A DNA stretch of 54,596 bases from Candidatus Parvarchaeota archaeon (GCA_017608385.1 JAFCFZ010000009.1:1-54596), one strand, 5' to 3'; shown: positions 6,015 to 50,183, counted from the stretch's first letter. Translations and numbers: made by a program. The notes: generated by a model not told the origin, from the letters alone.

Positions 6015-6066
6015 GCTTTAGCAGCTTCCGTCTGCTTGAGGCTTTAGCAGCTTCCGTCTGCTTGAG
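6015..6066. repeat. Perfect 2 x 26-bp tandem duplication spanning the stop codon of the DsbA-like gene
   Basis: gctttagcagcttccgtctgcttgag occurs at 6015-6040 and again at 6041-6066 with no mismatch; copy 2 encodes the last residues (SQADGSC-stop) on the minus strand. Confidence 0.9.
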
Positions 6067-7078
6067 ATCCATCATCTGATAGAACCACATCACATGCTGC
6101 AGGAGCATTGTTGAAGGCCGAACAAATAGCTTGTTTGTAAGCTTCAGGTGTTCTTGCAACATTTACTATTGCTCCGTTTATCATTAAAGTTGGAGATCCA
6201 CTAACGCCAAATTGAGATGTTAATAGTGTATCTGCTTGCATTAATGACAATCCATCTGTTTCAAAACAAGATTGGACTGCTGCTTTGTCAATCCCAGTTA
6301 CATCTGCTGCAGATTCCCAACAAGTCTCTATGTTATTTAAAGTACAATTTTTATTGGTGTAAGCTAGGAAATCCCAAAATGTTTGAATATCATAATCTCT
6401 TTGGATGCATGCTTCCCTTATGTTTTGATTGGCTTCAACTGGCCCATGAAGTGAGTTTATTGTTTCTCCAGATATAGAAACAATGTAATGAATTTTGAGG
6501 TCTATTGTATTTCCCAATAGTTCAACCACAGGATCCATTGCTTCTTCAGCAACATTTCCATAAGGACAGTATGACATTACATACAATTTAACTTCAGGAA
6601 CATCAGACTTTATTACCGTTGTTGCAGGTGGTTGTGCTGGAGCTTGTGAATTAACCAAAGCATAACTATCTGCATAAGAACCGATTAATTCATCAACCTC
6701 TTCTGGTTGTGATAAGTATAAATATTTTCCATCTTTTGAGATTAGAATAGTTATGTCAGAACCTTGCCATGCTGTTGTGACTTCATAGAGATCATCATTA
6801 AATATTACCGTGCTAACAAAAGTTGCGTTTCCTCCAGAATCAATTACTTGAGGCAAGGAATTAATTGCTTGAACTGCTCTGGCTCCTGCGGATTCTGAAG
6901 TTATAACAGCCATTCCTGTTACCCCTCCTGTTAAATGAAGACCTATGCTTAAGGCAAGGACTATTGATAAAACAATAATCATGTATTGATATTGTTGTTC
7001 AGTGAAAGCGAAACTCTTCTTATCTTTCTTTTTTTCTTCTTTCTTCTCTACTTTTTTCTCAGATTTTTTTCTAGCCAT
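6044..7078 (-). CDS. Membrane-anchored DsbA/thioredoxin-fold protein with monothiol CPYG site
   Basis: Lys-rich N-terminal tail plus one TM, then LYVMSYCPYGN (CxxC position reads CPYG) and a GVSGSPTLMING cis-Pro loop typical of DsbA-like folds. Confidence 0.65.
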   Translation of the reverse strand: MARKKSEKKVEKKEEKKKDKKSFAFTEQQYQYMIIVLSIVLALSIGLHLTGGVTGMAVITSESAGARAVQAINSLPQVIDSGGNATFVSTVIFNDDLYEVTTAWQGSDITILISKDGKYLYLSQPEEVDELIGSYADSYALVNSQAPAQPPATTVIKSDVPEVKLYVMSYCPYGNVAEEAMDPVVELLGNTIDLKIHYIVSISGETINSLHGPVEANQNIREACIQRDYDIQTFWDFLAYTNKNCTLNNIETCWESAADVTGIDKAAVQSCFETDGLSLMQADTLLTSQFGVSGSPTLMINGAIVNVARTPEAYKQAICSAFNNAPAACDVVLSDDGSQADGSC

Positions 7079-7447: not shown

Positions 7448-7915
7448 ATGGATAAAAAAGAGAAGATGAATAAGGATTATGAAAAATTGATGAAGAAGTA
7501 TTTATGGCCTTCTTTGGAAGAACTAGAGTCTGTTTTAGGAACGCATCTAGATAAGGAAACAAATTACTATATGTTCTTCACTTCTGCTTTACACAAGAAG
7601 TTAGTAGCGCCAACTCACATGATCGCTAATTTATTTATGCCAAAAGACATCTTTTCAATGATAGAGATTAAGTTCTTTACAAATGAAGAAAAGGAAGATT
7701 TGTTAAAATTTGGTCAAGATTGTTTACAGAGAATATGTAATTTGGAGAAAGTTTTTGTTTCTGAAGACAATGACGAGAAGGGAAAAATAGTTAAAGAAAC
7801 TTATGACTTTTATAAAAAGGAAGTTATGCCCTTTGTTAGGAAATTATTGGATAAAATGTCAGACAAATGGGGAGAAAAAAGTATAGATAAGGAAGTCCAA
7901 AACTATTTTGGATAA
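7448..7915 (+). CDS. Hypothetical protein (155 aa)
   Basis: ATG ORF whose stop overlaps the aspS start region; no motif recognised. Confidence 0.55.
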   Translation: MDKKEKMNKDYEKLMKKYLWPSLEELESVLGTHLDKETNYYMFFTSALHKKLVAPTHMIANLFMPKDIFSMIEIKFFTNEEKEDLLKFGQDCLQRICNLEKVFVSEDNDEKGKIVKETYDFYKKEVMPFVRKLLDKMSDKWGEKSIDKEVQNYFG

Positions 7916-9191
7916 AAATAAATACCCAGCTGTTTTTTCTTGTTCTATGGAATTATTTGGTTGGATTTCTGAATTAAGGGATTTTGGAGGATTAAGATTC
8001 ATTATTCTTAGAGATTCAGAAGGTTTTCATCAAGTTACTCTACCAAAAAAAGTAGTTTCCTCCAAAGTATTCAAATTATTTGAAGAATTGACAAAAGAGT
8101 CTGTTATTTATGTGGAGGGAAAGGAGAAAAAATCTGAAAGAGCAATGAATGGAAAAGAACTAATACCTTCAAAAATAAAAGTGATTTCCATATCTGAACA
8201 ACCGGTCCCTCTTGATATTTCTGGAAAAATATCTTCAGGATTAGATGCACGACTTGATTGGAGAAGTATTGATTTGAGGACATTAGACAACCAGGCAATT
8301 TTTAGAGTTAGAGCCAAGGTGATGAGATATTGGAGAGAATTTTTAGATAAGAACCATTTTTTAGAGGTCTCAACACCAACAATTATGGGAGTTGCTTCAG
8401 AAAGTGGAGCAGAGGTTTTTTCTATCTCATATTTTAATAAAAAAGCATTTTTAAGACAAGATCCGCAGCTTCATAGACAATTGACAATTTTGGGAGGATT
8501 TCCTAAAATATATGATCTTGGTCCTAATTGGAGAGCTGAAAAAAGTCATACAACAAGGCATGTTACTGAATTCACTTCTTGTGCAGTTGAGATGAATAAT
8601 ATCAAAGATGAGTATGAGATTATGGAATTAGAAGAAAAGATGATAAAATATTGTCTTAAGAAATTAGAAACTGATGAAGATTTTAAAAAGATGAAAATCA
8701 AATTGGATGTTCCTTCAAAATTTCCAGTTCTTGAGTTTCCTGAAATATATAAAATTCTTGAGAAAAAGGGTAAGAAATTCAAACCAGAAGAAGATATTGA
8801 TACTGAATCCGAATATTTGTTAGGAGAATATGTTAAAAAGAAATACAAGAGTGACTTTTTCTTTCTTAATAAATTTCCATTCAAATCCAAACCCTTCTAT
8901 GTTATGAAAGAAGGAGAGTATGCAAGAAGCACAGACTTAATCTTCAAAGGGATGGAGATGAGTTCTGGAGGTCAAAGAGAGCACAGATATGATGAATTAA
9001 TGAAAAATGTTAAAGACAAGAAACTAGGAACAAAGAGCATTGAATGGTTTACAAAATTCTTTAGATATGGTGCTCCAACTCATGGAGGTTTTGCAATAGG
9101 TGTTGAGAGATTTGTCAAACAATTATTGGATTTACAAAACATTAGAGAAGCCATTTTATTCCCAAGAGATGTGGAAAGACTTGCCCCGTAA
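7908..9191 (+). CDS. aspS: Aspartyl-tRNA synthetase, archaeal type
   Basis: N-terminal OB fold; class II motifs FRVRAKVMRYWREFL..FLEVSTPTI, QDPQLHRQL, GPNWRAEKSHTTRHVTEF, GGQREHRYD, HGGFAIGVERF; TTG 7908 as in the track (alternative ATG 7947). Confidence 0.93.
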   Translation: MDKNKYPAVFSCSMELFGWISELRDFGGLRFIILRDSEGFHQVTLPKKVVSSKVFKLFEELTKESVIYVEGKEKKSERAMNGKELIPSKIKVISISEQPVPLDISGKISSGLDARLDWRSIDLRTLDNQAIFRVRAKVMRYWREFLDKNHFLEVSTPTIMGVASESGAEVFSISYFNKKAFLRQDPQLHRQLTILGGFPKIYDLGPNWRAEKSHTTRHVTEFTSCAVEMNNIKDEYEIMELEEKMIKYCLKKLETDEDFKKMKIKLDVPSKFPVLEFPEIYKILEKKGKKFKPEEDIDTESEYLLGEYVKKKYKSDFFFLNKFPFKSKPFYVMKEGEYARSTDLIFKGMEMSSGGQREHRYDELMKNVKDKKLGTKSIEWFTKFFRYGAPTHGGFAIGVERFVKQLLDLQNIREAILFPRDVERLAP

Positions 9192-9223
9192 AATTAATAA
9201 CAGAAACACTCTTTATCTATTCT

Positions 9224-10309
9224 ATGGATACTGAATCAAAAATAGAGGCAATAAAGGGATTTGCCCAAGAAATAATAACTGAAGATGAATTAAGGTTTCT
9301 TTTAGAGACTAAAAAGCATCCAATTGCTTACGATGGTTTTGAGCCTTCTGGACTTGCTCCTCTTCATTTTGGTTTATACAGACCAATAATAATTAGAGAA
9401 TTAGTTAGATTAGGAATTGGCTTTAAGATATATATTGCTGATTGGTTTGCATGGATCAATAATAAGATGGAAGGAGACATGGATAAAATCAAGAAGGTTG
9501 GAAAATATTTTATAGAAGTTTGGAAAGCAGGAGGAGTTCCTGATAGGGGAGTAAAATATGTTTGGGCCTCTGATTTGGTTCATCAAAAGGGATATTGGGA
9601 AGATGTGATTAAGATATCCAAAAAAACCTCTTTGAATAGAGCCAAAAGATGTATGACAATCATGGGGAGAAAGGAAGGAGAATTAAATGATGTTGCCCAA
9701 TTTTTTTATCCAATGATGCAAACTACAGATATATTTCATTTAGGTGCAGACATAACCCAACTAGGAATGGATCAAAGAAAGGTAAATATGCTTGCTAGAG
9801 AAGTGGCTCCTAAAGTAGGTTTCAATAAACCTGTTGCAATTCATCACCCACTCATTTTAGGTTTGGAAGGACCTAAAAAAGCAGAAGGATTTGAGAAGGA
9901 TGAGAAATTAGATGTTTCAATAAGTTCTAAAATGAGTAAGAGTAACCCAAAAAGTTCGATATTTGTCCATGATTCTACTGAGGAAATTTCCAAGAAAACT
10001 AGAGCAGCATATTGTCCTGCTAAAATAGTTGAAAACAATCCTATGTTAGATTATATGAGAAATATGATTTTTAAACAATATAAGGAAGTAAGGATTGAAA
10101 GATCTGATAAATTTGGTGGAGATGTTTTTTATGTCAATTATAATGCTCTTGAAAAAGATTATAGAGAGGGAAATGTCCATCCTTTGGATTTGAAGACCGC
10201 AGTAGCATATTATATTGATGAGATGATAGAACCAATTAGAAGTCATTTTGAAAAAGGAAAATCAAAAGACCTTTATGAGGAGATTAAAAGTTTTAGAGTA
10301 ACAAGGTAA
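9224..10309 (+). CDS. tyrS: Tyrosyl-tRNA synthetase, archaeal type
   Basis: Colinear with M. jannaschii TyrRS as I recall it (YDGFEPSG..HFG, YPMMQTTDI, GMDQRKVNMLARE, KMSKS, AYCPAKIVENNPMLDY, HPLDLK). Confidence 0.9.
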   Translation: MDTESKIEAIKGFAQEIITEDELRFLLETKKHPIAYDGFEPSGLAPLHFGLYRPIIIRELVRLGIGFKIYIADWFAWINNKMEGDMDKIKKVGKYFIEVWKAGGVPDRGVKYVWASDLVHQKGYWEDVIKISKKTSLNRAKRCMTIMGRKEGELNDVAQFFYPMMQTTDIFHLGADITQLGMDQRKVNMLAREVAPKVGFNKPVAIHHPLILGLEGPKKAEGFEKDEKLDVSISSKMSKSNPKSSIFVHDSTEEISKKTRAAYCPAKIVENNPMLDYMRNMIFKQYKEVRIERSDKFGGDVFYVNYNALEKDYREGNVHPLDLKTAVAYYIDEMIEPIRSHFEKGKSKDLYEEIKSFRVTR

Positions 10310-10313
10310 TTCT

Positions 10314-11792
10314 ATGAAACCAATAAGAAATTTGATGAGAGAGAGAAAGAAGAAGTTGGATTTTCTAGAAAAAAAAGGAATAGAAACATATGCTTATTCA
10401 TACGATGTAAAGGATTTTTCAAAAGACATTCTAAAAAATTTCAAGAAATATGATAAAAAAACAGTTTCTTTGGCAGGAAGAATTATGAGTTCACGGACAA
10501 TGGGAAAAATATCTTTTGGTAATTTACAAGATAGAGAAGGAATAATCCAATTTTCATTAAGGCAAGATGGGATTAAAGATTATAAGACCTTTGTTGATGG
10601 CTTTGAAAGAGGAGACATAATTGGGATTCAAGGAAAGGTCTACAAGACCAAAAGAGGAGAAATTACAGTTGATGTAAAGAAAATCACAATGTTGGCAAAA
10701 TCATTAAGACCTTTGCCAGACAAATGGCATGGACTTAAGGATATGGAAGAAAGATACAGACAAAGATATGTTGATTTAATAATGAATCCAGAATCAAAAG
10801 AGGTTTTTCTTGTGAGATCTAAATTAATCTCAGCCATGAGAGAGTTTTTGGATAAAAATGGATTTATTGAGGTAGAAACACCAATTTTACAACCATTATA
10901 TGGTGGAGCAATGGCAAAACCATTTGAGACAATACATAATGAACTGAAAAGAAAAATGTATTTGAGAATTGCAGATGAATTATACTTAAAGAGATTGATT
11001 GTTGGTGGTTTAGATAGAGTTTATGAGGTTGGAAAGGACTTTAGAAACGAAGGAATAGATACTAGACATAATCCTGAATTTACTCAATTAGAATATTATG
11101 CAGCATATATGGATATTAATGATGTGATGAAATTTTCAGAAGAGCTTTACAGATTCTCTATCAAGAAAGCAATAGGAAAGTCTGTTTTTGAATATCAAGG
11201 AAATAAGATAGATATTAGCAAGAAATTCAAAGTTGTGAGCATGACTGAAGTTGTTAGTAAACACTTGAAAAAGAAGGTTTTTTCTATTCCTGAAAAAAAA
11301 CTGTTAAAGATTGGAGAAAAAATGGGAGTTGAAAGTAAAATTCCTGGAAAAATAATTGAAGAGATTTTTGCAGAAAATATTCAGCCAAAATTAATCCAAC
11401 CAACATTTGTTATTGATTTTCCTGTTGATATATCTCCTCTTGCAAAGAAAAAGAGAGGAGATGAAAAAGTAGTTGAGAGATTCGAGTTTTATATGGGTGG
11501 AGAAGAGTGTGGAAATGCATTTTCTGAGTTAAATAATCCAATAGAACAATACCAAAGATTTGCTGAACAAGACCAGTTTAGAAAATCAAAAAGAGATGCA
11601 GAAGCTCAACCATTAGATAGAGATTATGTTAGAGCTTTGGAATATGGAATGCCCCCCACTGGTGGATTCGGAACAGGAATTGAAAGACTTTTAATGGTTA
11701 TAACAGGAAATCCAAGCATTAAGAATACTATTTTATTCCCTGCTTTAAGGGAAACTGAGAAATTTGAAGTGTTTGGAGATTTTATGTGGTGA
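10314..11792 (+). CDS. lysS: Lysyl-tRNA synthetase, class II
   Basis: OB-fold N domain plus class II core (RQRYVDLIMNPE, FIEVETPILQP, YLRIADELYLKRLIVGG, FRNEGID..HNPEFT, GGFGTGIERL). Confidence 0.93.
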   Translation: MKPIRNLMRERKKKLDFLEKKGIETYAYSYDVKDFSKDILKNFKKYDKKTVSLAGRIMSSRTMGKISFGNLQDREGIIQFSLRQDGIKDYKTFVDGFERGDIIGIQGKVYKTKRGEITVDVKKITMLAKSLRPLPDKWHGLKDMEERYRQRYVDLIMNPESKEVFLVRSKLISAMREFLDKNGFIEVETPILQPLYGGAMAKPFETIHNELKRKMYLRIADELYLKRLIVGGLDRVYEVGKDFRNEGIDTRHNPEFTQLEYYAAYMDINDVMKFSEELYRFSIKKAIGKSVFEYQGNKIDISKKFKVVSMTEVVSKHLKKKVFSIPEKKLLKIGEKMGVESKIPGKIIEEIFAENIQPKLIQPTFVIDFPVDISPLAKKKRGDEKVVERFEFYMGGEECGNAFSELNNPIEQYQRFAEQDQFRKSKRDAEAQPLDRDYVRALEYGMPPTGGFGTGIERLLMVITGNPSIKNTILFPALRETEKFEVFGDFMW

Positions 11793-12802
11793 TTACAATA
11801 GATTTGGAAAGAGAGATAAAAAAAGAACTTTTTGATTTAGGATCTCAATTTGGTTATGGAAAGAGTAATAATTATTTGAGCGATGAAACGTTTATTCAAC
11901 CAAAAGAGTTATCAAAAAAAGCACATCCAAAACAAGGGTTTAAATTACATGTATCCTGTAACAATTCTGAAAAAGACTTGAAGAAGGTTATGAGAACAGT
12001 GGTACCTTATTTATTTGATAGGAAAATAGACTTTAAAGTAACTTATTCCTTAGATCATATGAAAGGGACTCAGATTGGAAAATTTCTTACAATATACACA
12101 AAATCAGATGATAATACTATTAAAGTTGCTTATGAAGTTGATAAACTTCTTTCAAAATCAGGCATAAGAGGAAAAGGACCAAAAATACCTTCCGATAATC
12201 TTATTCCAAATTCTTCTTCAGATATGGTTTATTATAGATTTGCTTCATCTGGAAAGGTGATTCAACTTCCAGATGGAAGAATGGTAGAAGATGCCAGAGT
12301 AGATCCTGTTCCTAAAGGAATAGTTGATATTTTTGAACAAGCTTATCAAAGAAAAAGACCAGAAGTACAAAAAAAAACAGTAACAGAAAAATTTGAAAGA
12401 CCCGAAACATTAGATGAATTAATTGAAGGTGTTGAATCTCAACAAGAACCAATAATAAGCAGTTCTGGAAGTTATATTCCTGAAGAAGTAGCTAAGAAAA
12501 TTGAAGCATATGCTAGTGGAGAAATTGGATTAGACAGGATTACAAGAGCAAAGGGATTAAGAACAAAAGCATGGGCCATTAAGCAAATATCAGAAGTAGA
12601 GAGCATGGATGAACTCATTAAATTGATTAAAGACAACGATTTAGAAATACCTAGTTCTTTAGGCACTTATAGTTCAGATAGATTAACCAAAGTAATAGAA
12701 CAAGTAGTTAGAACCAAAGGAAAAGACAGAGATAAAAAAATAGCTAATATAACTAGAACATTTGGATTGAGAAAAACAGTAATTAAACTGTTAAATACAT
12801 AA
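11786..12802 (+). CDS. Hypothetical protein; OspF/SpvC-like phosphothreonine-lyase-like core plus duplicated C-terminal unit (tentative)
   Basis: GTG 11786 overlaps the lysS stop by 7 nt; blocks FKLHVS / DFKVT / GKFLTIYTKSD / PSD...VYYRF occur in the order and spacing of SpvC (recalled); two roughly 45-aa repeats at aa 226-265 and 290-333. Confidence 0.6.
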   Translation: MVITIDLEREIKKELFDLGSQFGYGKSNNYLSDETFIQPKELSKKAHPKQGFKLHVSCNNSEKDLKKVMRTVVPYLFDRKIDFKVTYSLDHMKGTQIGKFLTIYTKSDDNTIKVAYEVDKLLSKSGIRGKGPKIPSDNLIPNSSSDMVYYRFASSGKVIQLPDGRMVEDARVDPVPKGIVDIFEQAYQRKRPEVQKKTVTEKFERPETLDELIEGVESQQEPIISSSGSYIPEEVAKKIEAYASGEIGLDRITRAKGLRTKAWAIKQISEVESMDELIKLIKDNDLEIPSSLGTYSSDRLTKVIEQVVRTKGKDRDKKIANITRTFGLRKTVIKLLNT

Positions 12803-12846
12803 TCTTGTGCATAAATGCTTTTAAGTGTCCTACTTGAGTGAAATGC

Positions 12847-13494
12847 ATGGCACTCGTTATTTTTGATTTAGATGATACTCTCATTTATCATGTTGAAGAC
12901 ACATTTTATGAAGTTTTTAACCGTTCTTTAGAGGAATCAGGATTAAAAAGAATGAATTATGATAAATATAAGATCTTTAGTAAGAAAGTTTGGAATCAAG
13001 AAGATAAACAAAATTCAAGAAAAGCCATAAAACAAGAGTTTGATGTTGAAATAGAAGATTTTATTGAAAAATTATACAAATATGATTTGATTGTTCATGA
13101 AGAATATTTAAAAAATGGATTTATTGAGGTTTTTGATGATGTTGTTGAATCTTTAAGTGAATTAAAAAATCAGGGTCATAAAATTGCATTGGTGACTAAT
13201 TCTTCAAGAAAATCAGCAGTTATGAAGATCAAAAAAATAGGAGAGCATTTGTTTGATTTTGTTTTAACCAGAGATGATATTGAATCTCCAAAACCAAATC
13301 CCGAACCTATTTTAAAAACAGTTTCAATAATGGGTTTTGAAAAGGAAGATTCTATTTATATTGGGGATTCTGAAGTAGACAAAATAGCTTCAGAAAGAGC
13401 AAATATTAAGTTTCTTATGATAAATAGGGGAAATGGATATGGAGATATAAAATCCTTAAATCAATTACACAAATTAATAGGTAATGAGAATTAA
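12847..13494 (+). CDS. HAD-superfamily hydrolase (phosphatase, subfamily IA-like)
   Basis: Motif I VIFDLDDTL, motif II VTNSSRK, motif IV GDSEVD; ATG 12847 (track gives in-frame GTG 12838). Confidence 0.8.
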   Translation: MALVIFDLDDTLIYHVEDTFYEVFNRSLEESGLKRMNYDKYKIFSKKVWNQEDKQNSRKAIKQEFDVEIEDFIEKLYKYDLIVHEEYLKNGFIEVFDDVVESLSELKNQGHKIALVTNSSRKSAVMKIKKIGEHLFDFVLTRDDIESPKPNPEPILKTVSIMGFEKEDSIYIGDSEVDKIASERANIKFLMINRGNGYGDIKSLNQLHKLIGNEN

Positions 13495-13537
13495 AATAGA
13501 AACATATAGTTGTTCCTCAAATGTTTCAGACCATAAA

Positions 13538-14002
13538 TTAAATATATATCCTCAAAGCATCCCTTTTAATACTTTCAATCCTTTTGATAACAATTTCCTC
13601 ATCAATTATCTCTGGATTTTTAATTGTTACAAAAAGTCCAACGTTTTTATGATCAATATGACCAACTGAAGATAATACAACAGGAACTCTTTTTAAAGAA
13701 CCATAGGATCTAACTTCTTTGTCATTAGTTTTGATATCAAGAGGCACACAATATTTTATAGAATTCTTTTGTTTTAAGACCCAATAATCCACTGGAATAT
13801 CTTTAATCTCTTTAATAATTTCTTTAGGTACAATAACAACTGCTCCATTGTTATATGATGTTGCTCTTCCTGTAGCTCCGATTCTCAATTTTTCCTTTTC
13901 GAGTAATTTTTCCAAATCTCTAAAAGTTTCTTCAAGAGAATCAGTAAGTTTACCTTCCATCCTCACACTCTTTCCATCAACAACAGAAAATCTTGCACTC
14001 AT
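13538..14002 (-). CDS. Hypothetical protein (154 aa)
   Basis: ATG ORF immediately downstream of proS on the same strand; no family recognised. Confidence 0.55.
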   Translation of the reverse strand: MSARFSVVDGKSVRMEGKLTDSLEETFRDLEKLLEKEKLRIGATGRATSYNNGAVVIVPKEIIKEIKDIPVDYWVLKQKNSIKYCVPLDIKTNDKEVRSYGSLKRVPVVLSSVGHIDHKNVGLFVTIKNPEIIDEEIVIKRIESIKRDALRIYI

Positions 14003-14045
14003 GAGTTTTCATGAGAAAATGCCTTTTAAAATAATTTTGAAAGAT

Positions 14046-15518
14046 TTAGTAACTCTTTGCGATGTATACAGTTTCTTTTGAAGGTTTTCCACAAACACAA
14101 CATTGCTTAAACTTATTTTTTTCCTTGCCAACTCGTTTTCCTCTTACTTCTGCACCTGTTTTTTCCTTGATAGATTCAGCACATTTCTTTCCGCTCAATT
14201 CTAAAGAACAAAAACCAGTACAAGCAATCATTCCATCGTCTATTACTTTTTTGATTTCGATTATTGTTTTTGCTGTTTTGACTTTTGATTCAAAACTAAT
14301 TAATGTTTTTTTCTTGAGTTGATCTGTGAAATTCTTTGAAAAATCATTGACAAATTTACCAATATTTGTCCATTTTACTGCTTGTTTTTTTCTATCAATT
14401 CTATTAACAGCAACCACTTTTTTTGATTCAATGTCTTTAGGTCCTATCTCAATTCTTAAAGGAACTCCCCTTAATTCCCACTCATTGAATTTTTCACCAG
14501 GACTTATTTCATCCCTATCATCTAATTTAACTTTACATTCTTTGAGAGAAACTTTTACAGTTTTTTCGATTTCTTTGGCTTTTTTCATCACATTATTCTT
14601 AGTTTTAGCATTGTAAATAGGAATAATCACAACATGTAATGGAGATAGATCCCACGGTAACACTAATCCATTATCATCTCCTAAAATTGCAACCATTCCT
14701 CCATAGATCCTACTTATTGCAGGCCCATAACATGTAATATGTCCATACTGTTCCTTATTGTTTTTATCAAGAAATGTTACGTTAAATGGTTTTGAAAATT
14801 TTTTTCCCAGATAGTGTGTTGAAGGTAATTGTATTACTTTTCCAGATTGAGTTAATGCATCTGCTGCAAATGTTTCTTCTGTTCCTGCAAATTTATCCCA
14901 GTGAGGTCTTTGAAAGAATATTATTGGGATGCAGAAATTATCTTGTAACATTTCATAAGTTGTTTCCATGTCTTCATTTATTTGGCTCATTGCGTCTTTT
15001 TTTGATGCAAAAACATTATGAGATTCAATCCAATGAAATTCTCTTGCTCTAAAGAAAGGAAATGTTGCTTTTCCTTCATGTCTCCAAACCTGACAGGATT
15101 GATATCTCTTGAATGGAAGATCCTTATAACTTCTAATCCATAGAGAATACATTTGATAAAATGCTGTTTCACTTGTTGGTCTTAATGCAAGCCTTTCCTC
15201 TAACTTGTTTTTTCCTCCGTGTGTTACCCAAAATACTTCAGGAGTAAATCCTTCTACATGGTCTGATTCAAGCTTGAAATTACTCTCTGGGATTAATGAA
15301 GGTAAAGTGATAGGTAAGTGACCTTTCTTTTCAAGAAGATTTTGATATTTTTCATACATTTTTCTTATAGTTATTGTTGCCCAAGGCATGTAAACTATCA
15401 TACCTTTGATTTTGTACCTAGTATCAGCTAATTCTGCTTTTTGTACCAATTCTAAGAACCATTTGGAAAAATTCTGGTTTTTCTTTACAGATATTCCCTT
15501 TATCCTTTCTTTACTCAT
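14046..15518 (-). CDS. proS: Prolyl-tRNA synthetase, archaeal/eukaryotic type
   Basis: LRPTSETAFYQMYSLWIRSYKDLPFKRYQSCQVWRHE, FHWIESH, C-terminal Zn-binding domain ending ...CCVCGKP..YIAKSY. Confidence 0.93.
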   Translation of the reverse strand: MSKERIKGISVKKNQNFSKWFLELVQKAELADTRYKIKGMIVYMPWATITIRKMYEKYQNLLEKKGHLPITLPSLIPESNFKLESDHVEGFTPEVFWVTHGGKNKLEERLALRPTSETAFYQMYSLWIRSYKDLPFKRYQSCQVWRHEGKATFPFFRAREFHWIESHNVFASKKDAMSQINEDMETTYEMLQDNFCIPIIFFQRPHWDKFAGTEETFAADALTQSGKVIQLPSTHYLGKKFSKPFNVTFLDKNNKEQYGHITCYGPAISRIYGGMVAILGDDNGLVLPWDLSPLHVVIIPIYNAKTKNNVMKKAKEIEKTVKVSLKECKVKLDDRDEISPGEKFNEWELRGVPLRIEIGPKDIESKKVVAVNRIDRKKQAVKWTNIGKFVNDFSKNFTDQLKKKTLISFESKVKTAKTIIEIKKVIDDGMIACTGFCSLELSGKKCAESIKEKTGAEVRGKRVGKEKNKFKQCCVCGKPSKETVYIAKSY

Positions 15519-15601
15519 ACTTCTATGATAAGAAAATAACTTATATTAATTATGCTTGTTATACCGAAATGTTTATATTTACTATAAAGTGGTTATTTTT
15601 T

Positions 15602-16099
15602 ATGAATAATAAAAGATTAATTGTAGAATTAGAAACACATGGAAAACCATGGAATGTTGAAAAATTACTTGATCAAGATCAAGAGATTATTTTGGGAACT
15701 ATGGAAGACACTGTAGTAAATGGTTCTACATGGGAAAAGAAATTTTGGATAGAGCAAGATAATGAGGTTATTTTAGGTTCTTCAGAACATTCAAATATAA
15801 TATTGGATGATTTGATTCCTGAGAAGTTACTTACAATATCTGTTGGAAATTTGGAAGGGATTAATCCAAAAGATTTATTTTATCAAGTTTTTGTGGAAAT
15901 GGAAAAAGACAATTCTCCTCAAAAAGTAACTGTAGCTTATAGAGATCCATATTCAAAACCAGTTATTTTAAGACCTAAATCCTCTTTTGGGATAAGAAAT
16001 CAAGGCGTTGTAGAGATCTTTGAAGGAGTTGCAGATAATTTGGATGGATATCATGAAAAATTAGGATCTTTACAAATGTATCTAGAAGGAACACGTTAG
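15602..16099 (+). CDS. Hypothetical protein (165 aa from ATG 15602)
   Basis: ORF track starts at ATG 15569, but the TATA-like tttatattta (15572-15581) lies inside that extension and about 25 nt upstream of ATG 15602. Confidence 0.5.
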   Translation: MNNKRLIVELETHGKPWNVEKLLDQDQEIILGTMEDTVVNGSTWEKKFWIEQDNEVILGSSEHSNIILDDLIPEKLLTISVGNLEGINPKDLFYQVFVEMEKDNSPQKVTVAYRDPYSKPVILRPKSSFGIRNQGVVEIFEGVADNLDGYHEKLGSLQMYLEGTR

Positions 16100-16160
16100 T
16101 TAGATAGACACAACATTTATTTAGTTTTATTTAGATTTGTTATTATCCCTAGTGATAATA

Positions 16161-17948
16161 ATGAAAAAATTAGACCATAAACAATTGAAAAAGCTTTTTT
16201 TTGAATTTTTCAAAAGTAAAAAACATGCAATTATCAAAGACTTTTCAATTGTTCCTGAAGAAGAAGGAGGAGAAGGATTGTTTATTCTAGCAGGCATGCA
16301 TCCTTTGATACCCTATTTAATGGGTAAAAAGCATAAAGATGGAAATAGAATCGCAAATTGTCAGAGATGTATTAGAACAGTTGATATTGAGGAAGTTGGA
16401 GATAAGACACATAATATTTTTTTCGAGATGCTTGGAAATTGGTCTTTAGGTGATTATTTTAAAAAAGAATCAATTGAGTGGAGCTATGAATTTCTTACTT
16501 CTAAAAAATACTTAGACATTCCTCACGAAAAGTTGTGGGTCACTGTTTTCAAAGGAAATAAGATAGTTGGAAAAGATGAAGAAAGTGTTCAAATATGGAA
16601 ATCTTTAGGAATTTCAGAAAATAAAATAATTCCCTTAGGAGAAAAAGATAATTGGTGGGCTGTTGGAGAAAATGGACCTTGTGGTCCCGATACTGAGGTT
16701 TTTATTGATTTGACTGGAAAACCGTGTGGAAAAAAGTGTTTACCTGGACATTGTGAATGTGGAAGATTTGTTGAGATATGGAATAATGTTTTTATGGTTT
16801 ATGATAAACAAGGGGGAAAAATAACTGAATTAAGCAAAAAAAATGTTGATACTGGTTTAGGATTGGAGAGAACTTTGGCTATTTTGAATGGTTATGATTC
16901 ATTGTATGAAACTTCTGTTTTAAAACCAATATTAGAAGAGATTATGAGTAAATCTCAACAAGATTTGGAAAAAGAGAAAAAAGATTTTAGAATTTTGACA
17001 GATCATTTGAGAGCAAGTGTGTTTATTTTAGGAGATGTAAATCCAACAATCCCATCCAATCATGGAAGGGGTTATGTTTTGAGAAGAATTATCAGAAGAT
17101 CTTTTAGATTTTGTAAGAAATTAGAAATTAATGTTGAAGACTGGATAAACACTTCAAATATTGTTATAGACATATATAAAGAATATTATCCTGAATTAGA
17201 GAAGAACAGGAACTTTATTATCAAAGAAATGGAAAAAGAGAATGAAAGATTTAGTAAGGCTCTTGCAAAGGGACTTTTTTATCTAAAGAGAATGATGCCA
17301 GAAATTAAGAAAAAAGGCAAGATTAATGGAGAAACTGCTTTTAGATTATATGATACTTTTGGATTCCCTATAGAGATCACAAGAGAAATAGCTGAGGAAA
17401 ACAAATGGGGAATCGATATCAAAAAATATGATATTTTGTTGGAAAAACACAAGGAAAAATCAAGAGCAGTATCAGAAAAAGCAAAAAGTGGGTTGGTTGA
17501 AGAAAGTAAGGAAACATTGCAATATCACACTTTAACTCATTTACTCCAGGCAGCGTTGATTAAAATTTTAGGAAAACAAGTAAAACAGAAAGGTTCAAAC
17601 ATAAACAAAGAGAGATTAAGATTTGATTTTTCTCATGATAGATCTATGACAAAAGAAGAGATAAAAAAAGTGGAAGAATGGATTCAAGATAAGATAGATA
17701 AAAAATTGGATGTTACAAAAGAGAAAATGACTTATGAAGTGGCAATGAAATTAGGCGCTATAGGTTTATTCAATGATATATATGCTAAAAAAGTCACAGT
17801 CTATTCAGTTGGAAATGCTTCAAAGGAAATATGTAGAGGACCACATGTGTCAAATACAAAGGAAATAAAAGGGAAATTCAAGATCAAAAAAGAAGAATCT
17901 TCTTCTGCTGGTGTAAGAAGAATCAAAGCAATTCTTATTCAGGATTAA
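16161..17948 (+). CDS. alaS: Alanyl-tRNA synthetase, short bacterial-type (catalytic, tRNA-recognition and editing domains; no C-Ala domain)
   Basis: FFEFFKSKKH, CQRCIR, HNIFFEMLGNWSLGDYFK, GPCGPDTEVF, VEIWNNVFM, DTGLGLER; editing HTLTHLL and CRGPHV; ends right after AGVRRIKA; ATG 16161 preferred over TTG 16137. Confidence 0.9.
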   Translation: MKKLDHKQLKKLFFEFFKSKKHAIIKDFSIVPEEEGGEGLFILAGMHPLIPYLMGKKHKDGNRIANCQRCIRTVDIEEVGDKTHNIFFEMLGNWSLGDYFKKESIEWSYEFLTSKKYLDIPHEKLWVTVFKGNKIVGKDEESVQIWKSLGISENKIIPLGEKDNWWAVGENGPCGPDTEVFIDLTGKPCGKKCLPGHCECGRFVEIWNNVFMVYDKQGGKITELSKKNVDTGLGLERTLAILNGYDSLYETSVLKPILEEIMSKSQQDLEKEKKDFRILTDHLRASVFILGDVNPTIPSNHGRGYVLRRIIRRSFRFCKKLEINVEDWINTSNIVIDIYKEYYPELEKNRNFIIKEMEKENERFSKALAKGLFYLKRMMPEIKKKGKINGETAFRLYDTFGFPIEITREIAEENKWGIDIKKYDILLEKHKEKSRAVSEKAKSGLVEESKETLQYHTLTHLLQAALIKILGKQVKQKGSNINKERLRFDFSHDRSMTKEEIKKVEEWIQDKIDKKLDVTKEKMTYEVAMKLGAIGLFNDIYAKKVTVYSVGNASKEICRGPHVSNTKEIKGKFKIKKEESSSAGVRRIKAILIQD

Positions 17949-18432
17949 CTTCTTCTTCTAAAATCCAAAATTCATCTTTTCCTGCTAACATCCCTTTTCC
18001 ATATTCTTTTCTTACTTTGCCTGCTTTTTTCCCTTTAGCTAGAAGACTAAAAATTATTCTATTTCCAACTCGTTTCATCTCTTCAATTGCTTTTAATGGT
18101 CTTTTTACATCTTGTAATACAGTTACAGAAATTACTATATCAAACTCTTTGTCTTTAAAAGGAAGTTCTTCAGCGTTTGAAATAACAAATTTACCTCTTA
18201 CTCCTTTTCTTTTAGCTATTTTTATCATTTCTTCACTCAAGTCTAAACAAACTAATCTAGAAGCTCTTTGTAGTTTTTCAGAAATGATTCCAGTCCCACA
18301 ACCTACCTCTAAAACTGATTTTCCCTTTACTCGTATGTAGCCCCTAATAGCTTTCCATTTCTCTTCTTGCTCCTCACCGTATAATTCATCATAACCAGGA
18401 GATATTCCATCATAATATTCCTTAATACTCAT
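17935..18432 (-). CDS. Class I SAM-dependent methyltransferase
   Basis: Motif I VLEVGCGTGIISEKL, then DLSEEMI and acidic post-I residues. Confidence 0.8.
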   Translation of the reverse strand: MSIKEYYDGISPGYDELYGEEQEEKWKAIRGYIRVKGKSVLEVGCGTGIISEKLQRASRLVCLDLSEEMIKIAKRKGVRGKFVISNAEELPFKDKEFDIVISVTVLQDVKRPLKAIEEMKRVGNRIIFSLLAKGKKAGKVRKEYGKGMLAGKDEFWILEEEVNPE

Positions 18433-18507
18433 ATCTTAGTATATGTAATAAGTAGTTAAAACCTTTTTCACAAAACATTTATTATCTTGATTTTGCTTTA
18501 TTGCTTT

Positions 18508-19791
18508 ATGATTGATTATGTTCTTTTGAAGACTAAAAAAGGAGATTTTGAGGGATTTATTGTCCCTAGAAGTGAATTTAGTCATAAGGGTTTTGTTACA
18601 TTAAAACTAAAAGATGGTTATAACATCAATGTGAAAAAAACTGATATAATTTCAATGAAAACTATGAAAAAAAGAGCAACACTTGAGAAGTTTCCTAAAA
18701 TTAATATTAAAACAAGAAAAGGGCTTCCAAATATCTCTTTAATCTCTACAGGAGGAACAATTGCTTCTCGTGTAGATTATGAAACAGGTGGAGTTAAAAT
18801 GGCACTTTCTCCTGAAGAAATAATGTTTGCTGTTCCCGAAATGCAAAATTTTGTGAATATTGACTCTGTAAAACAGGTTTTTAATATGGCATCTGAGGAT
18901 ATTTTTCCTGAACAATGGATAAAAATTGCTAAAACAATTGTAAATGAGTTAAATAAAGGTTCTAGAGGAGTAGTTATTACCCATGGAACAGATACAATGC
19001 ATTATACTTCTGCTGCTTTGTCTTTTTTAGTAAGGACTTCAAAACCAATTATTTTAACAGGAGCTCAGAGAAGCACAGATAGAGGGAGTTCAGATACGTT
19101 TCTTAATTTATTATGTGCGGGGATTGCTGCAGGAAGATCAGATTTGGGAGAAGTAGCTATTGTTTTTCATGAGAATCTTGAGGATGATTTTTGCTTTGCA
19201 ATAAGAGGAACTCGCGCAAGAAAGATGCATACTGAAAGAAGAGATGCATTTAGACCAATAAGTTCTCTTCCTTTATTAAGAATCGACAAAAAAGGAGGAA
19301 TTGAAAGAACTTCAGATTTCAAAATCTTTTCAGATGAAAAAGCAAAGTTAGATGGTGGTTTTGATAGGAATGTTGCATTGCTAAAAGTTTATCCAGGAGC
19401 AGACCCAAAAATACTTGATTTTTATCTTGAGAAAGGTATAAAGGGAATTATTATTGAAGGTACTGGTTTTGGCCATGTTCCAACAAACACACTGAAAAAA
19501 ACAGATTCTTGGATAAGCAAAGTCAAAAAATTAGTAGATAATGGAATCTTTGTTGGAATAACATCTCAAACAATATATGGAAAAACGAGCAGTACTGTTT
19601 ATAGGAATTTGAGGGTATTATCTAAAACTGGAGCAGTTCATTTATCAAATATGATACCTGAAACAGCATATGTTAAGTTAGGGTGGGCTCTTTCAAAGGA
19701 AAAAGATATTGATAAATTAAAGAAATTAATGTTAACAAACATCGCAGGAGAAATATCAGATAGAACAGAAGAAAATTGGTTTTTGAAATGA
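18508..19791 (+). CDS. gatD: Glu-tRNA(Gln) amidotransferase subunit D
   Basis: Asparaginase-like motifs ISTGGTIASRVDYETGGV and THGTDTMHYT after a short N-terminal barrel; directly followed by gatE; ATG 18508 (track TTG 18487). Confidence 0.9.
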   Translation: MIDYVLLKTKKGDFEGFIVPRSEFSHKGFVTLKLKDGYNINVKKTDIISMKTMKKRATLEKFPKINIKTRKGLPNISLISTGGTIASRVDYETGGVKMALSPEEIMFAVPEMQNFVNIDSVKQVFNMASEDIFPEQWIKIAKTIVNELNKGSRGVVITHGTDTMHYTSAALSFLVRTSKPIILTGAQRSTDRGSSDTFLNLLCAGIAAGRSDLGEVAIVFHENLEDDFCFAIRGTRARKMHTERRDAFRPISSLPLLRIDKKGGIERTSDFKIFSDEKAKLDGGFDRNVALLKVYPGADPKILDFYLEKGIKGIIIEGTGFGHVPTNTLKKTDSWISKVKKLVDNGIFVGITSQTIYGKTSSTVYRNLRVLSKTGAVHLSNMIPETAYVKLGWALSKEKDIDKLKKLMLTNIAGEISDRTEENWFLK

Positions 19792-21560
19792 AGATTGGTT
19801 TAGAAATTCATCAGCAATTGAATACTGGTAAATTGTTTTGTAGATGTGATTCCAAAATCATCAAAAGACCTCCTGACAAAGTTATTAAGAGGCAATTAAA
19901 GGCAATTTCAGGTGAATTAGGGAAAGTAGATATAGCTGCTTCTTATGAACAAAAAAAAGAAAGAGAAATTTTCTATGAATTTTATAATAATGATAATTGT
20001 TTGGTGGAATTGGATGAAGAACCCCCACAACCAATAAATAAAGATGCATTGGAAATAGCGATAAAAATAGCTTTTTTGCTTAATATGGAACCTTTGGAGG
20101 AAATTCAAGTTATGAGAAAATCTGTTGTAGATGGATCTAACACCTCTGGATTTCAAAGAACAGCATTGGTTGGGATCAATGGTTATGTTGAGACTAAGGA
20201 AGGAAAAGTTAGAGTCAATAGATTATACTTAGAAGAAGACTCTGCTAGGAGAATTTCGGGAGAGAAAACAATATTTAGATTAGATAGATTAGGGATTCCT
20301 CTTGTTGAGATAAGAACAGAACCAGATATCAAAAGTCCTGAACATGCTTATCAGATTGCTAGAAAAATAGGTCAATTATTGAGAGTTACTGACGTTAGAA
20401 GAGGAATAGGAACTATAAGACAAGATGTTAATGTTAGTGTTAGGGGAGGAAAAAAAGTAGAGATTAAGGGATTCCAAGACATTAAATCAATCAAAAAAAC
20501 AATTGAAATGGAAGCAAACAGACAAAAGGGATTTTTACAAATATCTAAAGAATTGAAAAAAAGAAAAGCCAAGTCTGGTCAAATAAGAGAGATAACCGAT
20601 ATTATTGAAAAAACAAAATCTAATTTGAAAAAAAGTTTTGGAACAAGTAATGCTTTGAAATTAAATGGATTTCAAGGATTATTGAAGAAACCAGCTGGTT
20701 TTTCTTGGCTTGGAAAAGAATTGTCGCAGATTGCCAAAAATTTTGGTTTTGGGGGGATAATTCATTCAGATGAGTTACCTGCTTTTGGGATTACTAATAA
20801 AGAAATTGAAAAGATAAGGGAAAGAGTAGGATGTAAGAAGAATGATGCTTTCTTGTTTATTGTTAGTAAAAAAGATAATATTCCTGCTTTGAAAACAATT
20901 GCAAAAAGAGCAGATATGTTTGTTAATGGGGCTCCTTCTGAAGTTAGAGTAGCTAAAGGAGATGGAACTACTGGTTTCTTAAGACCAATGCCAGGATCTG
21001 CAAGAATGTATCCTGAAACAGATTTATTGCTAATTAAAGTGGACTCAAAAAGAGTTAAGATATTAAAAAAAGATTTACCTGAAAGACCTGAGACTACAAA
21101 AGAAAGATACTTAGTTTTAGGATTAGGTTCAGAACAAACAGAACAAATAATTCGTTCGGGACATTCTAAACTTTTTGACAAGCTAATTTCAGAATCTAAA
21201 TTAAAACCAAGTGTTATTGCTAGTTTGTTATTGAGTTCTCCTAATGAATATAAGAAAAACTATGGAGTGAAGATAGAAATAGACGAAAAATGGCTTATTC
21301 CAGTGATTAGTCTCTTGGAGAAAGGAATGATAAGTAAAAATATGATTCCCCAAATAATCAATGATCTTTCAAAAGGCAAGAAATTGGAGAAAATAACCTC
21401 TTCTTTTGTTAGTGAAGATAGAATTGAATACTCTATAAAAAAAGTACTTAAGAAAAATAAAGATGTAGACAATAGGAAATTAGTTGGTCTTGTTTTAGCA
21501 GACCTAAAAGGAAGAGCTAGTCCTTCAAAGATCTTTGAAATAATCAAAAAAATTATTTGA
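19788..21560 (+). CDS. gatE: Glu-tRNA(Gln) amidotransferase subunit E
   Basis: MKIGLEIHQQLNTGKLFCRC start typical of GatE/GatB; ATG 19788 overlaps the gatD TGA (ATGA). Confidence 0.92.
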   Translation: MKIGLEIHQQLNTGKLFCRCDSKIIKRPPDKVIKRQLKAISGELGKVDIAASYEQKKEREIFYEFYNNDNCLVELDEEPPQPINKDALEIAIKIAFLLNMEPLEEIQVMRKSVVDGSNTSGFQRTALVGINGYVETKEGKVRVNRLYLEEDSARRISGEKTIFRLDRLGIPLVEIRTEPDIKSPEHAYQIARKIGQLLRVTDVRRGIGTIRQDVNVSVRGGKKVEIKGFQDIKSIKKTIEMEANRQKGFLQISKELKKRKAKSGQIREITDIIEKTKSNLKKSFGTSNALKLNGFQGLLKKPAGFSWLGKELSQIAKNFGFGGIIHSDELPAFGITNKEIEKIRERVGCKKNDAFLFIVSKKDNIPALKTIAKRADMFVNGAPSEVRVAKGDGTTGFLRPMPGSARMYPETDLLLIKVDSKRVKILKKDLPERPETTKERYLVLGLGSEQTEQIIRSGHSKLFDKLISESKLKPSVIASLLLSSPNEYKKNYGVKIEIDEKWLIPVISLLEKGMISKNMIPQIINDLSKGKKLEKITSSFVSEDRIEYSIKKVLKKNKDVDNRKLVGLVLADLKGRASPSKIFEIIKKII

Positions 21561-37144: not shown

Positions 37145-37150
37145 ATTCAA

Positions 37151-37234
37151 CGCCCGGAGCAGGATTCGAACCTGCGAGGGGATAAACCCACTTGCTTTCG
37201 AGGCAAGCGCCATACCGGACTAGGCGATCCAGGC
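37151..37234 (-). tRNA. tRNA-Ser (anticodon CGA), type II with long variable arm
   Basis: Folded by hand: acceptor GCCUGGA/UCCGGGC (one G-U), D arm GCC..GGC, anticodon stem CUUGC/GCAAG with loop CUCGAAA, variable arm GGG-UUUAU-CCC, T arm GCAGG-UUCGAAU-CCUGC, discriminator G; no encoded CCA. Confidence 0.9.
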
Positions 37235-37280
37235 ATTATTAATAATTAAAGAATTGATTTAAAAACATTATAAAAAAAGA

Positions 37281-50098: not shown

Positions 50099-50183
50099 GC
50101 CGGGGTGGCTGAGTGGACTAAGGCGCCAGCCTGGAAAGCTGGTGAGCGTTAAGCTCTCCAGGGTTCGAATCCCTGCCCCGGCG
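50099..50183 (+). tRNA. tRNA-Ser (anticodon GGA), type II
   Basis: Acceptor GCCGGGG/CCCCGGC, anticodon stem CCAGC/GCUGG with loop CUGGAAA, variable arm GAGC-GUUA-GCUC, T arm CAGGG-UUCGAAU-CCCUG, discriminator G; followed by an oligo-T run. Confidence 0.92.

Follow-up and report, generated by a model that had tools for sequence, protein, structure and literature searches.

A kinase-less phosphothreonine-lyase-type protein with an uncharacterised tandem repeat module behind the aminoacyl-tRNA synthetase genes of an archaeon

Phosphothreonine lyases are known from two settings: bacteria employ them as virulence effectors to put host MAP kinases permanently out of action, and lanthipeptide synthetases contain them as one of their domains. 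What, then, might a protein of this type be doing directly behind the lysS gene of an archaeon? This question is raised by a 338-residue open reading frame (ORF) in a 54,596-nt stretch of DNA from Candidatus Parvarchaeota archaeon (GCA_017608385.1, JAFCFZ010000009.1:1-54596). Here, the whole stretch is called the window, the product of the ORF is called the window protein, and residues are numbered according to the 338-aa ORF throughout. An earlier note on this DNA, made from the sequence alone, had described the product as a relative of the effectors OspF and SpvC with a novel duplicated C-terminal unit. The motifs quoted in it (GFKLHVS, FKVT, GKFLTIY, IPSD and YYRF) all read as given.

The recognition of the lyase domain is in itself not new: RamC_N is detected in the window protein by a curated Pfam model, and some of its relatives are already named ‘LanKC N-terminal domain-containing protein’ by NCBI. 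What is new is an archaeal, kinase-less and operon-embedded variant of this lyase together with an uncharacterised partner module. The reading that we favour, and consider rather probable, is that of an autonomous phosphoserine/phosphothreonine (pSer/pThr) lyase whose specificity would be supplied by the new tandem module and which would be translated by coupling to lysS.

Family, fold and active site of the lyase domain

By family and by fold, residues ~1-190 constitute a pSer/pThr β-elimination lyase domain. In Pfam-A, the window protein has one significant family, RamC_N (PF25816), which represents the lyase domain found at the N-terminus of class III/IV lanthipeptide synthetases and is matched over aa 44-167 (57.2 bits, gathering score 27, E 2e-15); the relatives P0009-12 score 50-91 bits against the same model. 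The NCBIfam equivalogs LanL (56.7 bits, cut-off 650) and LanKC (46.7 bits, cut-off 575) are matched over their first ~150 positions only, and neither cut-off is reached. A profile of 39 lyase domains retrieved 9wj0 (1.7e-32) from the Protein Data Bank (PDB), followed by ThurKC (8sao/8sap, 7e-32), CuvL (8car, 2e-24) as well as PneKC and SalKC (~1e-18).

The lyase half and the repeat half of the protein were modelled in two separate predictions with separate alignments. For the lyase half, the AlphaFold2 model built on the 39-domain alignment has a predicted local distance difference test score (pLDDT) >90 over aa ~11-190. Foldseek places it closest to ThurKC (8sap, E 2.4e-8, probability 1.0) and CuvL (8cav, E 4.2e-8, rmsd 2.7 Å over 200 columns, probability 1.0) among PDB structures, with SalKC and PneKC next (9ugq and 8wgo are among the LanKC-type matches). 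OspF (3i0u, E 4.3e-4, probability 1.00, TM-score (target) 0.47) and HopA1 (4rsx, E 7.6e-3, probability 1.00) follow; the latter match is at the level of the fold only, as Pfam HopA1 (PF17914) does not match the window protein. Profile, model and structure searches thus bear out the phosphothreonine-lyase fold that the earlier note had proposed.

The same cannot be said of the proposed kinship with OspF and SpvC. At E<=10, the window protein has no Pfam match to the SpvC/OspF family, and no SpvC or OspF chain was found in the PDB by single-sequence, 4-sequence or 39-sequence profile searches. Since OspF was retrieved by the fold search alone, a direct sequence link to these effectors was rejected, and, judged by its sequence, the domain is of the LanKC/LanL (RamC_N) type rather than a member of the OspF/SpvC family.

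For the active site, ThurKC serves as the reference. Mutagenesis has shown that its residues K65, H67, K94, K117, D152, R163 and R191 are required for dehydration, and the same study equates them with K104, H106, K136, R148, D201, R213 and R220 of SpvC (PMC10604976). Read from a HMMER alignment to ThurKC chain 8sao_B (chain index +3 gives the published numbering), the seven positions correspond to K53, H55, K84, K99, D137, R151 and R171. All of these catalytic and phosphate-binding residues (7/7) are intact in the window protein, and so is Y104. In alignments of 4, 9 and 39 lyase domains, K53, H55, K84 and K99 are invariant, while Y104, R151, D169 and R171 vary little or not at all. The domain and its key residues lie as follows:

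11786..12355 (+): pSer/pThr lyase domain, aa 1-190, with the RamC_N match at aa 44-167 (nt 11915-12286)
11942..11950 (+): K53-L-H55 (AAA TTA CAT), equivalent to ThurKC K65/H67 and SpvC K104/H106; predicted carbonyl/phosphate contact and general acid
12035..12037 (+): K84, equivalent to ThurKC K94 and SpvC K136; predicted general base
12080..12097 (+): K99 to Y104 in the GKFLTIY motif; K99 is equivalent to ThurKC K117 and SpvC R148
12194..12196 (+): D137, equivalent to ThurKC D152 and SpvC D201
12236..12238 (+): R151, equivalent to ThurKC R163 and SpvC R213; predicted phosphate binding
12296..12298 (+): R171, equivalent to ThurKC R191 and SpvC R220; predicted phosphate binding

The earlier note had named a Lys/His/Lys/Tyr set as catalytic. 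Its first three members, K53, H55 and K84, are recovered through the ThurKC mapping, whereas the tyrosine is assigned by motif position only. In SpvC, K104 and Y158 polarise the carbonyl, K136 acts as the base and H106 as the acid, and VenL K51/H53/R83/Y108 have been aligned with this set (Goto et al. 2010, PMC2843593). K53/H55/K84/Y104 of the window protein show the same spacing as the VenL residues, and the position of Y104 in the TIY motif supports its equivalence to SpvC Y158 and VenL Y108.

Despite its lyase domain, the window protein is not a LANTHIPEPTIDE synthetase. No Pkinase match was found in it at E<=10, aa 205-338 being taken up by the repeat module, and Pfam detected no LanC-like cyclase domain. 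Likewise, Pfam scans of ~50 ORFs across the 54.6-kb contig revealed neither a protein kinase nor a LanC-like gene. The domain itself carries a further trace of this: in ThurKC, the loop between the base lysine and the next phosphate-binding lysine touches the DF(G/E) segment of the kinase and is absent from SpvC and OspF (PMC10604976). This loop, measured from the base lysine to the lysine of the GK motif, spans 23 aa (20-24) in 82 kinase-fused homologs, 15-21 aa in repeat-fused proteins and 15 aa in the window protein, as compared to 12 aa in SpvC. A shortened kinase-contact loop agrees with autonomy from a kinase.

How common are such proteins? Word-indexed homolog searches returned 4, 4 and 9 matches, and the productive search was an exhaustive one with phmmer, which yielded 254 matches among 1.84 billion representatives. 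Architectures were classified for 145 of the 150 best representatives. A kinase domain is present in 89 of the 145 (LanKC/LanL-like or lyase plus kinase) and the repeat module in eight; 19 have a C-terminal lyase behind unrelated N-terminal regions and 22 are essentially lyase-only, some of which may be fragments. In the other seven, the lyase is either N-terminal to an unrelated region (three) or enclosed between other regions (four). In a neighbour-joining (NJ) tree of 130 lyase domains, a split separates the 30 nearest kinase-less domains, including all eight repeat-fused ones, from every kinase-fused homolog. With negligible bootstrap support for the split (1/60; 31/60 for the pair formed by the window protein and P0009), this grouping is only suggestive.

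Among these relatives, P0072 (835 aa, bacterial-looking) combines eCIS_core (PF13699), SH3_3 and DUF6861 with a C-terminal RamC_N lyase, making it a candidate contractile-injection-system cargo with a phosphothreonine-lyase-type toxin domain. P0030 and P0139 have N-termini that are signal-peptide-like or transmembrane (TM). P0054 (2266 aa) contains two RamC_N lyase domains, an EDR1/CTR1-type peptidase-like domain and a phosphothreonine-binding FHA domain, and is another kinase-less setting in which a phospho-binding module is paired with the lyase. Finally, the N-terminus of P0014 (209 aa), a close lyase-domain relative, reads MVVGLLSIELYIPHAQSLKDKRMVLRSIKDRL and resembles the DUF503/YlxP-like family by eye; this region would be a further fusion partner for a kinase-less lyase.

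The tandem repeat module and its carriers

Where a kinase would be expected, the window protein has two copies of a unit that begins with ETLDELI (aa ~205) and ESMDELI (aa ~269), respectively. Local alignment of aa 205-268 with aa 269-338 scores 67, as compared to 22.4+-4.2 for shuffled sequences (z=10.6, 0/2000). The duplication reported in the earlier note is therefore real, but its unit length of ~45 aa has to be revised to ~62-66 aa: with the former boundaries, the score is 43 against 21.4+-4.1 for shuffles, 2/2000 of which reach 43. The nucleotide sequences of the two units do not show an in-register repeat, and the duplication is therefore old. The C-terminal part is arranged as follows:

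12356..12397 (+): basic linker, aa 191-204, with low model confidence
12398..12589 (+): repeat unit A, aa 205-268; helix, beta-hairpin (IISSSGSY), helix, helix (ITRAKGLR...); 77.5 bits with the unit hidden Markov model (HMM)
12590..12799 (+): repeat unit B, aa 269-338; architecture as in unit A, with 6 aa inserted ahead of the final helix; 70.7 bits

The unit HMM was built from 13 units; the consensus of the domain is xFxELYxxIxxxGxIxG[ST]xxxYxPxELIxIIExVRxGxxxxxxVTRxxGLRxKVxxL. Modelled alone from a 13-row alignment, aa 195-338 reach a pLDDT of 95.4 and a predicted TM-score of 0.85 in AlphaFold2, each unit folding into a helix, a beta-hairpin, a helix, a short turn and a further helix. The isoelectric points (pI) of the two units are 4.8 and 9.4, i.e. 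the units are not uniformly basic.

As the earlier note had it, this unit fits no known family, and the library searches agree. There is no matching family in Pfam, NCBIfam, PHROGs or PADLOC, and Foldseek found nothing convincing in the PDB (best E 1.8, probability 0.06) or in BFVD, where the best match is an uncharacterised Alteromonas phage protein (E 0.21). Profile matches of the unit to PDB chains, namely to an engineered OspA over 17 residues and to NusA with 15.6 bits, were judged spurious. A weak AlphaRep/HEAT similarity reported by phmmer at aa 258-321 suggested a HEAT-like C-terminus, which was rejected: the unit alignment matches a HEAT protein with an hhalign probability of 0.3%, no HEAT protein was found by Foldseek and each modelled unit contains a beta-hairpin.

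Other proteins share the unit in several arrangements. P0009, the closest relative of the window protein (E 3.8e-37), has one unit C-terminal to the lyase, whereas P0010-P0013 (~310 aa) carry two units N-terminal to their RamC_N lyase; one unit accompanies the lyase in P0022, P0024 and probably P0050. In P0140, encoded at L010 1063-2856 from the groundwater metagenome SRR1658466, two units are followed by a HopA1-family (PF17914) domain, so that either branch of the phosphothreonine-lyase superfold is found joined to the module. Lyase-free carriers exist as well, with two units in P0049 and one in P0155-158. At L012 101-1031, two repeat-only genes lie 4 nt apart and encode 119 aa (one unit) and 188 aa (two units); as neither has a lyase domain, the module also exists in the form of stand-alone, tandemly encoded proteins. 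P0018 (1960 aa, 27 matched stretches) was rejected as a carrier because it is not matched by the unit HMM; it may be repetitive or biased in composition.

The unit is thus a mobile domain shared among proteins, and the module has been fused repeatedly and independently to two branches of the lyase fold. The single unit of P0009 adds a detail to its history. Its N-terminal half is nearest to unit A and its C-terminal half nearest to unit B of the window protein, while the whole unit scores 86 against unit B and 72 against unit A. This is compatible with a deletion by unequal recombination as well as with an internal duplication in the lineage of the window.

Start site, operon and chromosomal setting

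Turning to the gene itself, the ORF listing and the raw sequence agree on a 338-aa ORF that starts with GTG at 11786 and overlaps lysS by 7 nt (GTGGTGA), just as first described. However, a second in-frame GTG at 11789, which gives 337 aa and a 4-nt GTGA overlap with lysS, is probably the true start; public gene calling has chosen it too (P0001, 337 aa). The features of the locus are:

7908..11792 (+): aspS-tyrS-lysS row, with aspS 7908-9191, tyrS 9224-10309 and lysS 10314-11792
11775..11778 (+): GGAG, a Shine-Dalgarno-like motif 7-10 nt 5' of the start, within the 3' end of lysS
11786..11792 (+): start/stop overlap of the ORF with the TGA of lysS, with the geometry of translational coupling; kept as ATGA in L001
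11786..12802 (+): whole ORF, 338 aa plus stop, with the homologs P0009-P0013
12838..13494 (+): downstream HAD-family phosphatase, probable true start ATG 12847; also found next to the ortholog in L001

All of these genes are co-directional, and the gaps between them are 32 nt (aspS/tyrS) and 4 nt (tyrS/lysS) before the overlap of lysS and the ORF. The ORF is a probable last gene of an aspS-tyrS-lysS operon, its co-transcription with the aminoacyl-tRNA synthetase (aaRS) genes being plausible from this spacing. The 36-45 nt between the ORF and the HAD gene hold an A/T-rich, TATA-like stretch that may provide the latter with its own promoter. Public sequencing runs comprise a single DNA run (a seawater metagenome with 12% of the sampled words) and no RNA runs.

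The contig is archaeal, as presumed from the outset. It encodes GatD/GatE (18487-21560), an eEF1A-type elongation factor fragment (48-953) and an archaeal/eukaryal-type ProRS, has a GC content of ~30% and shows synteny with Woesearchaeota. A scan of GTDB species representatives, performed with four sequences and covering genomes other than that of the window, located the ortholog P0009 in a Candidatus Woesearchaeota metagenome-assembled genome (L001 2514-3344), in which tyrS, lysS, the lyase-repeat gene and the HAD gene follow each other in the same order as in the window. At the position equivalent to the GGAG motif, L001 has GGGAG ahead of its ATGA start/stop overlap. Window and L001 are 74% identical in LysRS and in TyrRS and 48% in the HAD protein but only 37% in the lyase-repeat protein, which therefore evolves much faster than its neighbours.

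The relatives with two repeats and a lyase come from other archaea and occupy other positions. In L002 and L007, the gene lies beside topoisomerase VI, whereas in L006, L011 and L013-15 it is located between radB and cdc48 in three genomes (the P0011/12/13 lineage), with tyrS, a second class II aaRS gene and topA upstream. In the P0012 and P0013 loci, tyrS and the second class II aaRS gene are found 5-7 kb upstream. The aaRS genes are thus non-adjacent in the P0011-13 loci, and they are absent from the 16-kb L002 locus. These fixed chromosomal positions indicate that the gene is stably inherited in at least three lineages, without an obvious mobile element. Downstream of the P0013 gene, L013 11024-16135 encodes a CDC48 homolog of 1703 aa with an intein and a LAGLIDADG insertion in its AAA modules.

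Several observations concern the contig at large. The region 7908-21560 is an unusually dense translation block comprising aspS, tyrS, lysS, proS (- strand), alaS and gatD/gatE. Many archaea use a class I LysRS; the LysRS of the window is of the class II (tRNA-synt_2) type. Only two tRNA genes are present on the contig, both for tRNA-Ser, at 37150-37235 (-) and 50099-50183 (+), with the anticodons CGA and GGA. At 6044-7078 (-), a 344-aa ORF matches GILT (PF03227; E 4.5e-6, 27.4 bits against a gathering score of 22.4), the gamma-interferon-inducible lysosomal thiol reductase family mostly known from eukaryotes. A 507-aa ORF at 39825-41348 (-) contains two CWB2 cell-wall-binding domains (PF04122), which are typical of Firmicutes surface proteins and hence unexpected on an archaeal contig. 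Lastly, a 789-aa ORF at 27302-29671 (+) has no Pfam match and is followed by an SfLAP/DsbD_2-like membrane protein (29715-31088), and several further ORFs of 200-250 aa on the contig belong to no family.

Possible functions and comparison with known systems

If the protein is an autonomous lyase, it would be a soluble, cytoplasmic enzyme of two parts. K53, K99, R151 and R171 would bind the phosphorylated Ser or Thr. With K84 as the base that removes the alpha-proton and H55 as the acid that gives a proton to the departing phosphate, the product would be dehydroalanine (Dha) or dehydrobutyrine (Dhb), i.e. the phosphorylation site would be irreversibly removed. Because the protein is devoid of the kinase and cyclase domains of lanthipeptide synthetases, the phosphate would have to be added by an unlinked kinase encoded elsewhere. 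The module tandem (aa ~205-338) would serve for targeting or docking and pick out the protein or peptide that bears the phosphate, in parallel to the MAPK-docking motif of OspF/SpvC or the leader-binding surface of LanKC, and coupling to lysS at the end of the aspS-tyrS-lysS operon would let the enzyme be translated together with LysRS.

A number of points weigh against this proposal. The activity of kinase-less RamC_N lyases is putative throughout, their substrate and kinase partner being hypothetical, and the case for the module's role is one of domain co-occurrence. The module could instead be regulatory, serve as an oligomerisation device or itself be the substrate, the last owing to its largely conserved [GS]-[ST]-x3-Y hairpin. 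Moreover, the full-length model lacks confident interdomain geometry, with a pLDDT of 40-79 for the C-terminus at shallow alignment. Finally, the family is very rare, amounting to ~ten 50%-identity clusters among the 1.84 billion representatives, such that comparative power is low.

Four other explanations have to be considered. The best matches in sequence and structure being lyase domains of lanthipeptide synthetases, the protein might be the dehydratase half of a split, lanthipeptide-like pathway for ribosomally made peptides with post-translational modifications (RiPPs), in which a separate kinase phosphorylates the precursor and the lyase makes Dha or Dhb. Clusters that encode a stand-alone lyase and a kinase have been described (PMC4159009), class V pathways use a separate HopA1-like LanY (PMC10604976), and the module is itself fused to a HopA1 domain in P0140. 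Yet, apart from the missing kinase and cyclase genes, there is no RiPP-type protease/transporter set beside the ORF, and no precursor-like peptide gene is evident there, small ORFs not having been systematically screened; the window protein has one Cys. Its housekeeping context (aaRS and HAD genes), which is kept in L001, and the location of its relatives between radB and cdc48 likewise make such a pathway unlikely. We consider it just as improbable that the protein is an exported effector or toxin with which an episymbiotic DPANN archaeon irreversibly erases phosphorylation sites of its host. It is true that the NJ group of 30 kinase-less domains includes P0072, whose eCIS_core is an N-terminal marker of contractile-injection cargo, along with P0030 and P0139, and that the rapid divergence from L001 would suit an effector. 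However, the split behind this group has next to no bootstrap support, the window protein has no signal peptide, TM or hydrophobic segment (maximum 19-residue Kyte-Doolittle mean 0.39), and there are no secretion-system genes near the ORF and no type III secretion system (T3SS) genes on the contig. No delivery mechanism is known from these archaea. Moreover, the gene is coupled to lysS and has been passed on vertically in three lineages, in each of which it keeps its place on the chromosome amid housekeeping genes. The role on a host that the earlier note had entertained has indirect support at best.

Very unlikely, in our view, is a pseudoenzyme, i.e. a non-catalytic phospho-binding or scaffold protein using the lyase fold. 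Two relatives deviate at active-site positions (R151 is replaced in P0012, which reads FYTY, and Y104 is W in P0022), and catalysis in the clade is putative; but pseudoenzymes typically lose the base or the acid, whereas the window protein retains every catalytic and phosphate-binding residue and its K53, H55, K84 and K99 are invariant across the 39 domains. Least credible of all is a translation-linked phosphoester substrate such as O-phosphoseryl-tRNA or a phosphorylated aaRS or translation factor. This idea draws on the start/stop coupling to lysS within a region rich in aaRS and related genes (aspS, tyrS, lysS, proS, alaS and gatDE) and on tyrS and the second class II aaRS gene in the P0012/P0013 loci, and is hence deduced purely from a context that is not upheld in the P0011-13 and L002 loci. 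In addition, the protein shows no recognisable tRNA-binding domain, only one of its two repeat units is basic, and the known members of the lyase fold all act on peptides or proteins.

The autonomous pSer/pThr lyase with a targeting module therefore remains our preferred reading. An intact kinase-less lyase among archaeal housekeeping genes suggests that irreversible removal of phosphosites may be an endogenous archaeal modification; alternatively, archaea with small genomes may carry effector-like enzymes. In either case, the module offers a handle for finding the substrates of these lyases and is a candidate new binding domain. A bolder and more doubtful extension is that it is a new recognition domain for phosphoproteins, phosphopeptides or another target, which would define, together with kinase-less RamC_N and HopA1 lyases, a hitherto unrecognised archaeal system of irreversible ‘eliminylation’. 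If so, pSer and pThr would be converted to dehydro-amino acids in a programmed manner, either in the cell's own proteome or, in DPANN lineages, in that of a partner cell, with co-expression of the system and the translation machinery in Woesearchaeota.

How does the window protein compare with known systems? With the LanKC and LanL enzymes (ThurKC, CuvL, PneKC, SalKC and VenL) it shares a significant profile match, the best structural matches, the K/H/K/K/D/R/R set plus Tyr and, presumably, the chemistry, i.e. β-elimination of phosphate from pSer/pThr. It differs from them in lacking the kinase, the LanC-like cyclase and the N-helix/kinase interface, in a kinase-contact loop that is 8 aa shorter and in having the module tandem where the kinase would be. 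Its host is archaeal, and its gene lies in a housekeeping context instead of a biosynthetic cluster. OspF, SpvC, HopAI1 and EseN resemble it in fold, in their stand-alone, kinase-less architecture and in the positions of Lys/His/Lys/Tyr and the phosphate-binding Arg; SpvC is also similar in how few residues separate its base Lys from the phosphate ligand that follows. Here, the differences are the undetectable profile relationship, the missing T3SS context and the archaeal producer, for which an injection apparatus is not known; nor does anything point to a pT-x-pY MAPK loop as the substrate.

Bacterial proteins of the P0072/P0054 type likewise join a kinase-less lyase module to variable partners and cluster with the window domain in the NJ tree, but these partners are secretion or cargo markers or FHA, and none has the repeat module. 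In the full text of the literature, no paper was found that joins DPANN or Woesearchaeota with phosphothreonine or LanKC-type lyases, or contractile injection systems with phosphothreonine lyases. In a 2014 survey, SpvC-like and LanL-like lyases were exclusively bacterial and a BLES03-like family was proposed for archaea (PMC4159009). The BLES03-like putative lyases belong to another sequence family and have kinase-rich neighbourhoods, unlike the window protein, which is a LanL/LanKC-type lyase in an archaeon. Both lyase-like proteins in archaea and lyases encoded apart from kinases have been proposed earlier (Khater & Mohanty 2014). HopA1 and the class V LanY (PF17914) stand at the level of the shared superfold: LanY acts in complex with the kinase LanK (LxmKY), for which there is no gene near the ORF, while P0140 fuses the very module of the window protein to a domain of the HopA1 family.

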